Sequence record: PZ379179.1
Direction: 5' to 3' (one strand)
Source: a phage
Length of the DNA: 39,736 nt
Made by a program: the position numbers and the translations under genes. Below, in pieces: positions 6,679 through 39,736 of this stretch (the first letter of the stretch is position 1; each line of letters starts with the position of its first letter). The notes beneath the pieces are model-generated. The model was not told the DNA's origin, ran no database searches, and was given only the letters and a program-made list of their open reading frames with translations.

Positions 6679-7706
6679 TGACAACTATCAAAACTAACCC
6701 TCACCGCGCTGTAGATTACTCTGAGTCTGGAATTAAGAAGGCACTGGAAGCAGCCGGGTCTCTGGAAGCTGAAGTGAAGTACGATGGTGTGCGCCTGAAC
6801 CTCCTGGTCCTGCGTGAAGGTGAGACCTACTGGCTTAGCCGCGAGTCGAAACCTCTACCAGCCTTGGAGTGGATGAACTCTGAGTTAGGTAATGCGTGGA
6901 CCCAAGCTGACTGGCGATGGTTCCTGCGTCAATCCGGCTACGAAGGTGTGGGCATGATGATTGATGGCGAGGTCATGGTCAAAGGTGTAGACTTCAACAC
7001 CTCCTCAGGTCTCATCCGAACGAAGTGGCTCAAGCCTAACAACGAGGAGTTCGCTGAATACTATTCGCCGGCGACTGGTGGAAAGAAGCTCCCGTTCTGG
7101 GGATCCCGGTCACGACTTCAGGTTGTGGTCTACGGTGTCATTGACATGACAACCATTGCTGACCCGAAAGCCGAAGGTCCTATCCATAGCGTAACCCGCC
7201 TGAAGGCCGAAGCTATCGTCCCTCTTCTCCAGAAATACTTCCCGGAAATCGACTGGGTTCTGTCTGAGAGTCATACAGTGTTCAACCTTGAGTCTCTTCG
7301 TGATTTGTACGAGGAGAAGCGAGCAGATGGACATGAAGGTCTGGTAGTCAAGGACCCACTGGGCAAATACAAGCGTGGTAAGAAGTCTGGTATGTGGAAG
7401 ATGAAGCCGAGTGAAGAGGCAGATGGTCACGTTGTTCGCCCGGTGTGGGGAACAGAAGGCCTAGCCAACGAAGGCATGGTCATCGGCTTTGACGTTATGC
7501 TCGAGAACGGGATGGAGGTCTCCGCAACTAACATTAGTCGCGCCCTTATGTCCGAGTTCACGGAGAACGTTAAGTCAGACCCTGACTACTACAAAGGGTG
7601 GGCTTGCCAGATTACCTACATGGAGGAGACACCAGATGGCTCATTGCGACACCCCTCGTTCTACCAGTGGCGTGGAACTGAGGATAATCCTACAGTCAAG
7701 ATTTAA
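6678..7706 (+). CDS. ATP-dependent DNA ligase (T7 gene 1.3 homolog)
   Basis: Adenylation motif KYDGVR; MTTIKTNP...SYWLSRESK...HEGLVVKDP...KRGKKSGMWKMKP...WACQITYMEETPDGSLRHPSF collinear with T7 ligase. Track ORF begins at 6663; the ATG at 6678 overlaps the gene 1.2 stop. Confidence 0.93.
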   Translation: MTTIKTNPHRAVDYSESGIKKALEAAGSLEAEVKYDGVRLNLLVLREGETYWLSRESKPLPALEWMNSELGNAWTQADWRWFLRQSGYEGVGMMIDGEVMVKGVDFNTSSGLIRTKWLKPNNEEFAEYYSPATGGKKLPFWGSRSRLQVVVYGVIDMTTIADPKAEGPIHSVTRLKAEAIVPLLQKYFPEIDWVLSESHTVFNLESLRDLYEEKRADGHEGLVVKDPLGKYKRGKKSGMWKMKPSEEADGHVVRPVWGTEGLANEGMVIGFDVMLENGMEVSATNISRALMSEFTENVKSDPDYYKGWACQITYMEETPDGSLRHPSFYQWRGTEDNPTVKI

Positions 7707-7707
7707 A

Positions 7708-8118
7708 GTGGACGAAAGGTCGGCCTCCGGGCTGGCACTCCACTCTGGACGAAAGGTAGGAAGTAAGAAGAAGTCCGGCTATTGGACGATAAACGTCAGG
7801 ACACCGTGGGGCCGAAAGCATCTACAGGTTCATAGGGTAATATGGGAGATGACACACGGTCCCATACCAGACGGCATGGAGATTGACCACATTGACCGGA
7901 ACCCTTCTAATAACAGGCTGTCCAACCTGCGACTGGTGACTCACTCCGAGAACAACCAGAACAAAGGACAGATGTCCACCAACACTACCGGAGAACGTCA
8001 CATCTCAAAGGTGAAAGGTCGAGAGCTTTACTGTATCAAGAAGGTGGTCAACGGAGAGCGCTTGGTCCTATATGCCAAGACCATAGCCGAGGCAGTAGCC
8101 TTAAGAGATTCATTATAA
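7708..8118 (+). CDS. HNH homing-type endonuclease (copy A)
   Basis: HNH core [46 protein letters not shown]. The track ORF starts inside the ligase gene; alignment with the paralog at 36668 puts the N-terminus at GTG 7708, directly after the ligase stop. No in-frame ATG is available. Confidence 0.7.
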   Translation: MDERSASGLALHSGRKVGSKKKSGYWTINVRTPWGRKHLQVHRVIWEMTHGPIPDGMEIDHIDRNPSNNRLSNLRLVTHSENNQNKGQMSTNTTGERHISKVKGRELYCIKKVVNGERLVLYAKTIAEAVALRDSL

Positions 8119-8901: not shown

Positions 8902-9056
8902 CTGAGGTTGAGAAGAAATACATCGTGGAGCTTGAGGGTCGCGTTCAGTCCTTCGAGGTTCCGTTGTACGCAAAGTCTCTTGAAGAGGCTACCCTGAAGT
9001 CCCAAGAGTATGAGGACGCTGGGTTTGTGGTCGGACGGATTCGCCCTGAGACCTAA
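8898..9056 (+). CDS. Gp2-like inhibitor of host RNA polymerase (52 aa)
   Basis: [14 protein letters not shown]...[10 protein letters not shown] matches recalled T7 Gp2 (SFEVPIYAETLDEA...AGFEVTRVRP). Below the track size cut-off. Confidence 0.8.
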
Positions 9057-9074
9057 ACTATCACTGTAGGACAG
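9052..9074 (+). promoter_or_regulatory. Phage RNAP promoter, variant (CACTGTAGG)
   Basis: CTAAACTATCACTGTAGGACAGA, with G at -2 relative to the consensus; upstream of the SSB gene. Confidence 0.55.
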
Positions 9075-9114: not shown

Positions 9115-9809
9115 ATGGCTAAAGAGCAACTGAAGACTTTCACCACTCCGGTAGCTGGTATCGTTGAGCCTTACGCATGGCTGAACAAAGCAGACACCAA
9201 GTTTAACGAGCGTGGTGAGCATAAGGTTAACCTGACGTTCGACCTGAGCGACCCGAAGGTCCGTAAGATGATTGATGTCTTACAGAAGATTCACGACGAT
9301 GCGTATGCAAAAGCACTCGCAGACCACGAGAAGAACCCCCTCAGGTTCAGCGTGGCAAGAAGCCTATTGAACCACGAGAAGGCGACATGCCGTGGATTGA
9401 GAATGGTGACGGTACTGTTACCCTTAAGTTTAAATGCTTTGCGTCTTACCTGAAAGACGGCAAGTCCGAGCCTATCGTATTACGGTTCTACGACACCGAT
9501 GCTAAACTCATCCGTGACGTCCCGAATATCTGCGCTGGGTCTAAGCTGAAGGTCAAGTTTAAAGTCCTGCCGTTCAAGTGGAACGCTGCGACTGGTGCAA
9601 GCGTTAAGCTCCAGCTTGAGTCCTGCCTTCTGGTAGAACTGAAGGAGTGGAAAGGCGATGGTGGCGATGGTGGCTGGGGTGATGATGAAGACCTTGGTAC
9701 TGGCTACAAAGCGTCAACCGTTGGTGACTTCGGTGGTGATGACTTTGGGTCTGACGATGGTTCCGAAGGTGGTGACGACTCCAGCTCTGATGGCGATTAC
9801 GACTTCTAA
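9115..9809 (+). CDS. ssDNA-binding protein (T7 gp2.5 homolog), frame interrupted at a C5 run
   Basis: Track ORFs 9115..9453 and 9387..9809 together align with T7 gp2.5 (N-terminal part in one frame; PPQVQRGKKP...MPWIENGDGTVTLKFKC...GSKLKVKFKVLPFKWNAATGASVKLQLE and the acidic C-terminus ending DGDYDF in the other). The frames meet at CCCCC 9336-9340. Confidence 0.85.
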
Positions 9810-10261
9810 TGGCCCAATGGTCTGCAAAACGGGGGCACTCTGTGGGTGCCTACCGCTCTGGACTTGAAGCCAAGAACCAGCAGTGGCTGGAACAGAACGG
9901 CGTCAAAGCGGAGTACGAAAGCCATTATATCAACTATGTGATTCCGGCTTCCGACCACAAGTACACACCAGATTTTATCCTTCCTAACGGTATCATCGTG
10001 GAGACCAAAGGTATCTTCGATAGTGATGACCGTAAGAAGCACCTTCTGGTACGAGAACAGCACCCAGAGTTAGACATCCGGTTCGTGTTCTCAAGTTCAC
10101 GCTCCAAGTTATACAAAGGGTCTCCAACCACGTATGGCGCATGGTGCGAAAAGAACGGCTATAAGTATGCCGATAAATTCATCCCGGTTGAGTGGCTTCG
10201 AGAGGCGACTGTACGTCTGCCTTCAGGTATACTCATCCCCAAGAAGAAAGGAGTTAAGTGA
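9809..10261 (+). CDS. Endonuclease I, Holliday-junction resolvase (T7 gene 3 homolog)
   Basis: 150 aa; VGAYRSGLE...YVIPASDHKYTPDFILPNGIIVETKG...DDRKKHLLVREQHPELDIRFVFSSSRSKLYKGSPTTYG nearly collinear with T7 endonuclease I. Confidence 0.93.
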   Translation: MAQWSAKRGHSVGAYRSGLEAKNQQWLEQNGVKAEYESHYINYVIPASDHKYTPDFILPNGIIVETKGIFDSDDRKKHLLVREQHPELDIRFVFSSSRSKLYKGSPTTYGAWCEKNGYKYADKFIPVEWLREATVRLPSGILIPKKKGVK

Positions 10262-10485
10262 TGACTCAAGAATTTAAGGTCGTTCGTAAGCGTCTGACCA
10301 TTGATAAAATCCCGGTAGGCTATGCGTTTATCGTCCACGGTAAGCCGGGTGAAGTGTACGTGAAGATTAGTAACTCTCACGTCTTCAACCATAAGTTGCT
10401 CCAGATGCACACCACGGATGCTAACCGCTTCCAACGTCATCTGAACCTCGTAGCTGTAGAGCTGGTGGTGTACGATGGTGAGTAA
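10261..10485 (+). CDS. Hypothetical protein (74 aa) between endonuclease I and lysozyme
   Basis: ATG at 10261 overlaps the upstream stop (TGATG), with AGGAG 7 nt upstream; the track ORF opens at GTG 10258. No T7 gene occupies this position. Confidence 0.5.
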   Translation: MTQEFKVVRKRLTIDKIPVGYAFIVHGKPGEVYVKISNSHVFNHKLLQMHTTDANRFQRHLNLVAVELVVYDGE

Positions 10486-10933
10486 GGTTCAGTTCAACCC
10501 ACGGTCCCTGACTGACGCTATCTTCGTTCACTGTAGCGCAACCAAGCCAGAGATGGACATCGGGGTAGAGACCATCCGTATGTGGCACAAGCAGCAAGGC
10601 TGGCTGGATGTAGGCTACCACTTTATCATCAAGCGTGACGGTACTGTGGAAGAGGGTCGCCCGGTCAATGTCGTAGGGTCACACGTTAAGGACTGGAACT
10701 CCAAGTCCGTAGGCGTCTGCCTTGTAGGTGGCATCAACGCTAAGGGTCAGTTTGAAGCTAACTTCACTCCAGCCCAGATGAACTCCCTGCGCAACAAGCT
10801 GGCTGACCTGAAGGTCCTGTATCCTCAGGCAGAAATCAAAGCACACCATGACGTAGCACCTAAGGCGTGTCCAAGTTTTGACTTGCGATGGTGGCTAGAT
10901 ACCAATGAACTGGTAACTTCCGACCGTGGTTAA
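10475..10933 (+). CDS. Lysozyme / N-acetylmuramoyl-L-alanine amidase (T7 gene 3.5 homolog)
   Basis: 152 aa; DAIFVHCSATKP...WLDVGYHFIIKRDGTVEEGR...GVCLVGG...APKACPSFDL...ELVTSDRG matches T7 lysozyme. Confidence 0.95.
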   Translation: MVSKVQFNPRSLTDAIFVHCSATKPEMDIGVETIRMWHKQQGWLDVGYHFIIKRDGTVEEGRPVNVVGSHVKDWNSKSVGVCLVGGINAKGQFEANFTPAQMNSLRNKLADLKVLYPQAEIKAHHDVAPKACPSFDLRWWLDTNELVTSDRG

Positions 10934-10954
10934 TAAACTCTAAAGGAGAGTGAT

Positions 10955-11218
10955 ATGGCAACTTTAACAAAAAAAGAACGGGCATGGTTGAACGAATTAC
11001 AGGACGTTCTTGATCGCTGTCCATCACCGAAAAAAATTGGCTTTTACACCATTGGCGATAAAAGCATTTACCTGTATGACCTGCGCCGCATGGATGAAAT
11101 AATGGAGGCTCTTGATAATCGTTCGTCGATGGATTGGTGTGTTGCTGTTCATGATATGAATGCAGGGTTTGATGAAAAGATTTTGTTCCCCTCATCAGTT
11201 GAAAGCACTGCGGGTTAA
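10955..11218 (+). CDS. Hypothetical accessory protein (87 aa) with atypical codon usage
   Basis: ATG with AAGGAGAG RBS. Lower GC and AAA-rich lysine codons (ACAAAAAAAGAA, CCGAAAAAAATT), in contrast to the AAG-rich backbone. No recognisable domain. Confidence 0.6.
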   Translation: MATLTKKERAWLNELQDVLDRCPSPKKIGFYTIGDKSIYLYDLRRMDEIMEALDNRSSMDWCVAVHDMNAGFDEKILFPSSVESTAG

Positions 11219-11228
11219 GGACTAACAC

Positions 11229-11426
11229 ATGACCACTATTACAAAAGAGCGACTACTGACAATCAAGCAGTGGCGCGAAACATACGGACATGGTAGCAAC
11301 GTTGTACTGCCAGCAGAAGAAGCGGAAGAACTGGAACGAATTGCACTTGCGTCACTGGAAGCTGGCATGAAGGCACGTCAAGCTGACACCAAAGCTGACC
11401 AGTTGGCTCAGTTCTTCAAAGCCTAA
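11229..11426 (+). CDS. Hypothetical accessory protein (65 aa)
   Basis: ATG with AAGGA RBS 8 nt upstream; the stop codon is part of the following promoter. No recognisable domain. Confidence 0.55.
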   Translation: MTTITKERLLTIKQWRETYGHGSNVVLPAEEAEELERIALASLEAGMKARQADTKADQLAQFFKA

Positions 11427-11444
11427 ACTATCACCTTAGGGATT
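11422..11444 (+). promoter_or_regulatory. Phage RNAP promoter, variant (CACCTTAGGG)
   Basis: CCTAAACTATCACCTTAGGGATT; upstream of the primase-helicase gene. Confidence 0.5.
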
Positions 11445-36224: not shown

Positions 36225-36671
36225 ATGCTCGAATTTTTAAAGAGAGCGGCTCCGTGGTTACTTTCAGCAGTGATATTTGCTGGTGGCTACCACACCGCTA
36301 ACAATAAGTGGGAGGCTAAGGTCAATGCAGAATACACCTCGAATCTTAAGGCATCGGAGGATACAAGACTTGCTGTCCAAGCTGAAGTCAACAAAGTGTC
36401 CAAACGGTTTCAGGACGAAATGTCCTCGCTGGAAGGCAGCACTGATAGGATTATTGCTGACCTTCAGTCTGACAATAAGCGGTTGCGCATCCGAGTCAAA
36501 CCTACGAGTGGAACCACGCAAAGTGACGGTCGATGCGTCATTGATGGTTACGCCGAACTTGACGAACGAGATGCTAAACGTCTTATCGCCATCGGAGTGA
36601 AAGGAGACAAATGGATTAAGGCGCTTCAGGACACTGTGAGAGCCTTGCAGCAAGATAAGGAGGCCCAATGA
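36225..36671 (+). CDS. i-spanin, Rz-like (T7 gp18.5 homolog)
   Basis: 148 aa; MLEFLKRAAPWLL...LEGSTDRIIADLQSDNKRLRIRVK...LDERDAKRLIA...GDKWIKALQDTVRALQ matches T7 gp18.5; N-terminal TM segment. Confidence 0.9.
   Translation: MLEFLKRAAPWLLSAVIFAGGYHTANNKWEAKVNAEYTSNLKASEDTRLAVQAEVNKVSKRFQDEMSSLEGSTDRIIADLQSDNKRLRIRVKPTSGTTQSDGRCVIDGYAELDERDAKRLIAIGVKGDKWIKALQDTVRALQQDKEAQ
36325..36600 (+). CDS. o-spanin, Rz1-like lipoprotein embedded in the +1 frame of the i-spanin gene
   Basis: Track ORF 36277..36600 in an alternative frame inside gp18.5; contains a lipobox-like LTISGC after a hydrophobic stretch LIGLLLTFS. Start uncertain (first ATG at 36325). Confidence 0.45.
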   Translation: MQNTPRILRHRRIQDLLSKLKSTKCPNGFRTKCPRWKAALIGLLLTFSLTISGCASESNLRVEPRKVTVDASLMVTPNLTNEMLNVLSPSE

Positions 36672-37108
36672 TGCTCAGTGATTCGTATGTCTATGATGAG
36701 TCCAGTAAGTCTGGCCTGAAGTCCCTGCGTTCTGGTAAGGACGTGGGGTGTGTGGGAAACCACGGGTATTATCAGGTAGGAACTCGACGTCATGGACTCC
36801 TACTGGCCCATAGAGTCGTCTGGGAACTAACCCACGGTCCTATACCAGAAGGTATGGAGATTGACCATATTGACCGCTGCCGGACTAACAACAGGCTGGA
36901 CAACCTCCGGCTAGTTACTTCAAGCGAGAACTCCTGCAACACCTCAGGACATTCTGACTCAAAGACTGGAGTTAAGAACATATCGTTCCATCAGAATGGC
37001 TACGCTATCGAGGTCATGCGTAAGGGAGTCCGTATGCGAACAACACGTCCTACTTTAGAGGAGGCTATCTCTGTCCGGGACCTAATGCTGGAGGGACTCT
37101 ATGTCTAA
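36668..37108 (+). CDS. HNH homing-type endonuclease (copy B, paralog of 7708..8118)
   Basis: 146 aa; [13 protein letters not shown]...[41 protein letters not shown], about 60% identical to copy A across the core. Overlaps the gp18.5 stop and the terminase start. Confidence 0.8.
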
Positions 37109-39575: not shown

Positions 39576-39736
39576 CCTCAAGTCTCCCCATAGGCCCTCT
39601 TTAAGTCAAGACCAAAGGCCCTACCCATAGACCTTCGGTCTAAACTTCAGGTCATTGACTCAAGGTTGACCAAAAGTCATGACGATAGGTCTAGGCTATG
39701 GCTTAGGGAAGGACGATAGGTAGGGACTATTGGTCT
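39576..39736. repeat. Right direct terminal repeat (161 bp)
   Basis: Identical to bases 1-161. Confidence 0.9.

Follow-up and report, generated by a model that had tools for sequence, protein, structure and literature searches.

Gene 3.2 of a K1F-like phage encodes the shortest form in a modular protein family with a predicted SH3-like barrel

The class II host-takeover proteins of phage T7 include Gp2, which inhibits the host RNA polymerase, and Gp5.5, which binds H-NS. T7 has nothing between the endonuclease I and lysozyme genes: in its reference record, gene 3 (10257-10706) runs directly into gene 3.5 (10706-11161). This slot is filled in phage K1F, whose record (AM084414) annotates a 157-aa "gp3.2 protein" (CAJ29361) that directly follows gene 3 and overlaps gene 3.5. 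EcoDS1 also uses the name gp3.2 for this position, and both proteins correspond to PHROG 16385. A shorter form of 74 to 75 aa, corresponding to PHROG 15211, occurs between the same neighbors in Cronobacter phage Dev2 and in Citrobacter phages SH1 and SH2, where a 75-aa ORF was listed as matching the 74-aa gp3.2 of Dev2 and assigned no function (PMC4925675). This entry was the only one found in a published annotation table. Our literature search returned no functional study of gp3.2 and no published expression data, and a preprint on a phage accessory-gene screen (10.1101/2023.04.06.535777) makes no mention of K1F or T7-like phages.

We examined the corresponding locus in sequence record PZ379179.1. 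The window is the whole of this record, 39,736 nucleotides, and represents a complete linear K1F-like (Kayfunavirus) T7-group genome with exact direct terminal repeats. At the whole-genome level it is closest to vB_EcoP-101136BS1 and LM33_P1 (~96% identity). The features of the genome and locus that bear on gene 3.2 are as follows.

1-161 and 39576-39736: direct terminal repeats, 161 bp (repeat finder)
2809, 6130, 6195, 8173, 9047, 11417, 17395, 20233, 21218, 25999, 33275 and 38957: the twelve CTAAACTATCACTATAGGA promoter-like repeats
9047-9071, plus strand: one of the twelve promoter-like repeat copies, upstream of gene 2.5
9809-10261, plus strand: gene 3, endonuclease I, 150 aa (Pfam Phage_endo_I, E 2.8e-81)
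10249-10253, plus strand: Shine-Dalgarno sequence AGGAG for gene 3.2, within the end of gene 3 (read from the sequence)
10261-10485, plus strand: gene 3.2, short allele, 74 aa, 8.6 kDa, pI 9.45
10464-10470, plus strand: weak Shine-Dalgarno-like GGTGGTG, within the last codons of gene 3.2 (read from the sequence)
10475-10477, plus strand: lysozyme ATG, embedded in the part of gene 3.2 that encodes the tail ELVVYDGE
10475-10933, plus strand: gene 3.5, lysozyme/amidase, 152 aa (Pfam Amidase_2, E 1.5e-15; PHROG 822 amidase, E 3e-78)

On the basis of T7-group biology, the repeats would be promoters for the phage RNA polymerase. The nearest copy upstream of genes 2.5, 3, 3.2 and 3.5 is the one at 9047-9071, and the next lies at 11417-11441. 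In the same interval, gene 2.5 (9115-9809), which encodes the essential ssDNA-binding protein, is split into overlapping ORFs at 9115-9453 and 9387-9809. Compared with K1F and PRF-SP1, the split results from a 1-base deletion around 9338-9339 (AACCCACCTCAG to AACCC-CCTCAG, a C5 run), and two later indels are in frame. Faulty sequencing or assembly probably explains the split, but a defective or frameshifting allele could also do so.

A preliminary description of this DNA had proposed an uncharacterized 74-aa gene between endonuclease I and lysozyme, translationally coupled to the first and overlapping the second. Its coordinates were exact. The TGA stop codon of gene 3 (10259-10261) and the ATG of gene 3.2 (10261-10263) form a TGATG overlap, and the GGAG of the ribosome-binding site ends 7 nt upstream of the ATG. 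The sequence AAAGGAG(T/C)TAAG is kept upstream of the start in all the Kayfunavirus and CR8-type loci examined. Automatic ORF calling begins the gene at GTG 10258, giving 75 aa; however, relatives with ...AAGAAATG lack this GTG, and ATG 10261 is therefore the conserved start. At the other end, the gene terminates at TAA 10483-10485, and the lysozyme ATG produces an 11-nt overlap. The gene 3.2 tail is conserved at the nucleotide level despite low model confidence for the residues that it encodes (pLDDT <50 at residues 67-74), which is consistent with dual coding with the lysozyme start region. For SH1 and SH2, published tables give the amidase ribosome-binding site as GCTGGTGGT (PMC4925675).

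Comparative sequence data indicate that gene 3.2 is a real, conserved coding gene under purifying selection. Using tblastn, we detected its protein in 221 phage records, mostly from Kayfunavirus and its neighbors; the hosts are chiefly Escherichia, Salmonella, Enterobacter, Citrobacter, Shigella, Cronobacter and Klebsiella. Proteins 97-99% identical to this one occur in FFK3, HC13, vB_EcoP_F and the Salmonella ST (Typhi) phages. The frame is open in all 25 distinct homologous loci, against a mean of 0.7-6.4 stops in the other five frames of the same sequences. The median pairwise dN/dS is 0.12 (Nei-Gojobori; 297 pairs with dS >0.05; 64 codons, lysozyme overlap excluded), and comparisons of this phage with its relatives reach dS values >1 at a dN of only 0.1-0.19. 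We found no Rfam match, sigma-70 promoter, terminator or phage promoter copy within the ORF or at its ends, and the RNA fold of the junction is not unusual (z = 0.4), so these scans do not support an embedded RNA or regulatory element. Given the open frame, the dN/dS ratio and the absence of such an element, the conservation acts at the protein level, except in the last few codons. The conservation in related phages that the preliminary description had proposed as a check is thus clear.

Two further features of the locus were considered. In codons 34-50 (10360-10412), synonymous variation is almost nil across 25 distinct relatives, with invariant nucleotide runs of up to 11 nt that include 4-fold-degenerate Val codons, against an overall dS of ~1. 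This pattern may reflect codon bias on invariant residues or an added nucleotide-level constraint. Transcription in T7-group phages proceeds from one strand only. A 93-aa antisense ORF (10159-10440, minus strand) was rejected for this reason and because it is open in only 10 of the 25 relatives.

Database searches placed the protein in a catalogued but functionally unannotated family. Residues 1-74 match positions 1-74 of the 74-position PHROG 15211 (E 9.1e-51), and the protein matches the 157-position PHROG 16385 at positions 90-157 only (E 1.6e-33); these two function-unknown families were the only hits in PHROGs. The preliminary description had seen no recognizable motif. This held for Pfam (no family at E ≤1, bacterial SH3b profiles such as SH3_3 and SH3_5 included), for NCBIfam, for PDB sequences searched with the family profile (no match at E ≤10) and for PADLOC-DB (no hit at E ≤1), a collection of defence systems rather than anti-defence proteins and hence a weak test for the latter; it did not hold for PHROG 15211, which is matched over its full length. 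An exhaustive HMMER run with the family profile against 1.84 billion cluster representatives recovered only 17 clusters, and viral contig searches with the divergent members P0019 and P0020 returned nothing. Every context that we examined was a T7-like phage genome or a contig with T7-type neighbors, and neither these contexts nor the profile search revealed a cellular homolog or a fusion to a known domain. Because it is catalogued (gp3.2, PHROG 15211) and 97-99% identical to many deposited sequences, gene 3.2 is not novel as an object. The description of the gene as uncharacterized was nonetheless apt, as existing annotations read gp3.2 or hypothetical, without a function, although the name already existed in the K1F group. 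One record departs from this: Escherichia phage YZ1 (MG845865.1, 9144-9365) carries the same 74-aa ORF, 97% identical, labeled "RNA polymerase inhibitor." Since all other records say hypothetical, this is probably a mislabel derived from the neighboring lysozyme or from gene 2 annotation.

We then compared the gp3.2 gene extracted from 26 related loci, together with database proteins. The C-terminal ~68 residues are the only part shared by the family, and the upstream parts differ widely. The forms without an N-terminal part are 74-76 aa long (this phage and the Dev2 type), forms of 87-107 aa carry short N-terminal remnants, and others carry one N-terminal module of 55-90 aa; protein P0017 (226 aa) has two N-terminal modules in tandem. 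Most relatives carry one or two N-terminal modules, and the module seen most often is β-rich and predicted with confidence. Long forms connect the N-terminal part to the constant domain by a linker rich in Pro and Ser (VLPASSVPPVTVKREV). In K1F gp3.2, for example, the C-terminal 68 residues share 78% identity with residues 7-74 of the protein studied here, which lacks both the additional ~85-aa N-module and the Pro/Ser-rich linker (VLPTSSVPPVTVKREV) of K1F. The Dev2 and SH1/SH2 proteins, likened to ours by annotation, have the same single-domain architecture, and the short forms of Cronobacter phage GW1 and related loci are ~80% identical to our protein, with allelic differences only. Among the natural alleles of this modular family, that of 74 aa is the shortest.

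The N-terminal modules are far more variable than the constant domain. By inspection, they fall into roughly ten mutually dissimilar sequence types, including the K1F type (GWPxGTIVTKC...GMWGAWV) and the CR8, PRF-SP1, IMM-002, Providencia and P0010 types. Among the same 122 proteins, the K1F-type N-module has a mean pairwise identity of 63%, compared with 92% for the C-terminal domain. Types A and D were linked by hhalign (probability 93%, E 3e-7). Sequence support for the N-modules as duplicates of the C-terminal barrel was absent: a C-domain profile searched against the N-modules gave hmmsearch E values of at least 0.28, and hhalign of types A or D against the C-domain gave probabilities <1%.

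Within the constant domain, 13-18 amino acid columns are invariant in alignments that include relatives of only 33-43% identity. Those invariant down to this level are Y33, S37-N-S-H-V-F-N43, Q48, H50-T-T52 and R56, with little or no variation at M49 and F57 (alignments A1 and A2). The resulting SNSHVFN ... QMHTT ... RF motif spans residues 37-57 in this phage and is retained in Providencia-type relatives of roughly 40% identity. On the genome, this signature and the confidently modeled core described below map as follows.

10288-10455, plus strand: predicted SH3-like barrel core, residues 10-65, the confident region of the model
10369-10431, plus strand: family signature S37-N-S-H-V-F-N43 ... 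Q48-M-H-T-T52 ... R56-F57 (alignments A1 and A2)

The preliminary description had also suggested structure prediction. Modeled with AlphaFold2 from a 12-sequence alignment, the 74-aa protein yielded a mean pLDDT of 74.9 and a pTM of 0.63. Confidence is concentrated in the core, where 10-residue blocks over residues 11-60 average pLDDT 83-90, and falls below 50 in the tails (residues 1-7 and 67-74). Five β-strands are assigned in the model (residues 22-25, 28-35, 40-43, 48-51 and 61-64); residues 11 and 12 form a bridge, and a short helix (residues 55-58) precedes the last strand. We read this prediction as a single putative SH3-like β-barrel. In the AlphaFold2 model of P0017 (132 sequences), the first module is β-rich and very confident (pLDDT 84-94), the second module is of moderate confidence and the overall pTM is 0.37. 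The linker is predicted with very low confidence (pLDDT 30-44) and is therefore probably flexible. Taking the models together, we read the family as a putative array of one to three small β-barrels, at least some of them SH3-like.

The putative SH3-like fold resembles EF-P domain I/KOW (6j7m_M), FeoA (3e19_A) and the C-terminal domain of DtxR/IdeR, as well as ribosomal protein L2 and Tudor SH3-like barrels. Identity to these barrels is only 5-17%, there is no profile relationship (Pfam and NCBIfam searches gave no match to FeoA, DtxR-type or EF-P KOW profiles) and their functional motifs were not found in gp3.2. The modeled likeness is one of fold and not of family membership. A Foldseek search of BFVD returned the gp3.2 family itself and, beyond it, only uncharacterized small phage proteins.

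These data bear on whether the peptide matters at all. Gene 3.2 might be a mere translational bridge from gene 3 to lysozyme that encodes a functionless peptide, or a chance ORF. Both of its ends are overlap-coupled, the lysozyme Shine-Dalgarno sequence (GGTGGTG) is weak and lies inside gene 3.2, and T7 couples gene 3.5 directly to gene 3, all of which would fit a bridge. However, a spacer would not retain the invariant SNSHVFN..QMHTT..RF motif, nor would it be expected to combine a dN/dS of 0.12, 13-18 columns invariant down to 33-43%-identical relatives and a confidently predicted compact fold; the RNA structure of the junction is also ordinary. We consider this explanation very improbable.

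The genomic arrangement of the gp3.2 gene is strongly conserved upstream. In every locus examined (27 loci, the Providencia phage included, and the metagenomic contigs L027 and L029), the gene starts on the endonuclease I stop codon with a 1- or 4-nt overlap, and the annotations of K1F, PRF-SP1, CR8 and PSTRCR_120 likewise place it after gene 3. Comparison with the nearest whole-genome relative (L031; MZ234024.1, 1137-1815) over 10150-10560 revealed 100% identity through gene 3 up to the gene 3.2 ATG. Past the ATG, the relative has 267 extra nucleotides, corresponding to an N-module and linker, and the shared C-domain is ~80% identical. Gene 3.2 is therefore an exchange cassette, replaced as a whole in this phage when compared with its closest genome relatives, with its 5′ breakpoint at the start codon. 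The 97-99% matches to the 74-aa allele come from phages that are otherwise more distant than this relative.

The strict linkage to gene 3 raises the alternative that gp3.2 is a partner or modulator of endonuclease I, in the form of a small basic protein with an SH3-like fold that binds DNA or DNA junctions. Coupling would supply the two proteins in a fixed ratio, and gp3.2 would tune, target or restrain the Holliday junction resolvase or the breakdown of host DNA. The invariant coupling and the basic charge of gp3.2 are in line with such a role. On the other hand, T7 endonuclease I works without such a factor and T7 has no gene at this position; no covariation of gp3 with gp3.2 was seen, an endonuclease of 100% identity being found beside a very different gp3.2 allele; and a fixed gene order is normal in T7-like genomes and need not imply interaction. 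A partnership with endonuclease I is, in our judgment, rather unlikely.

Downstream, the usual neighbor is the amidase, with an 11-nt overlap. An extra hypothetical gene separates the two in Salmonella phage PRF-SP1 (149 aa; positions 1697-2146 of locus L002) and in Providencia phage PSTRCR_120 (117 aa; positions 1659-2012 of locus L004), and that of PRF-SP1 begins at the 11-nt overlap position normally used by lysozyme. The overlap of gene 3.2 with gene 3.5 could suggest that gp3.2 is an accessory of the lysozyme/amidase, either a separately encoded SH3b-like peptidoglycan-binding module or a modulator of the interaction between lysozyme and RNA polymerase. Since genes intervene before the amidase in some phages and gp3.2 matches no SH3b profile, we regard this role as improbable.

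Other features of the genome were also noted. Between lysozyme and primase/helicase lie two small function-unknown genes, at 10955-11218 (87 aa, PHROG 1714) and 11229-11426 (65 aa); vB_EcoP-101136BS1 and K1F have a single 71-aa gp3.7 there, making this interval another variable slot. Two paralogous HNH_3 homing-endonuclease-like genes, at 7489-8118 and 36668-37108 (Pfam E 1.4e-23 and 1.9e-21), have a 132-nt stretch in common that is 75% identical according to the repeat finder. One is located in the early/class II region and the other beside an Rz-like lysis gene.

The explanation that we favor, by a modest measure of confidence, is that gene 3.2 is a genuine gene whose product, the shortest allele of its family, folds as an SH3-like barrel and serves as a non-catalytic binding module. 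We infer a binding function from the small size and basic charge (pI 9.45) of the protein, its predicted SH3-like fold and the lack of a match to any catalytic family, and also from the invariant polar patch, the tether to fast-evolving sister modules and the absence of the gene from T7. Gene 3.2 would share its transcription with the class II genes of DNA metabolism, and its translation would be coupled to that of endonuclease I; its last codons contain the lysozyme start codon and ribosome-binding region. In most relatives, the predicted barrel is the constant C-terminal part of a protein built like beads on a string, in which one or two N-terminal modules hang from the Pro/Ser-rich linker. 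Through its invariant SNSHVFN/QMHTT/RF polar patch, the barrel may dock on one conserved macromolecule, either a protein or a nucleic acid, at the stage of infection when DNA metabolism takes place. In long alleles, the fast-evolving N-modules would provide a second contact or redirect it; the 74-aa allele would be the bare docking unit. Such a protein would probably have an accessory, host-interaction role.

A more specific version, which we hold only tentatively, is that gp3.2 acts in host interaction or counter-defence as a modular factor with one to three SH3-like barrels. The invariant C-terminal barrel, which makes up the whole of the 74-aa protein, would be the effector that docks on a conserved target in the host or the phage. 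The N-terminal barrels, diversifying rapidly and swapped by recombination, would serve in an arms race to retarget or protect this effector. If this were true, the single-barrel allele would be the smallest active form and a useful handle for identifying the target.

As a binding module, gp3.2 would resemble T7 proteins of the Gp2 and Gp5.5 type, which are small, non-enzymatic, encoded among DNA-metabolism genes and variably present in T7-like genera. The likeness is one of analogy, as no sequence or structural relationship to either protein was found. What this analysis adds to the catalogued gene is modest, namely a predicted fold, a modular organization and evidence that the gene behaves as a cassette. 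The combination of a predicted SH3-like barrel, a constant C-terminal unit, exchangeable and fast-evolving N-modules and strict coupling to endonuclease I is a pattern typical of host-interaction genes. The family is an orphan in phages that are under development against E. coli K1, Salmonella Typhi and other enterobacteria, and, if its target is found, gp3.2 would be one more small host-takeover protein of the T7 group.
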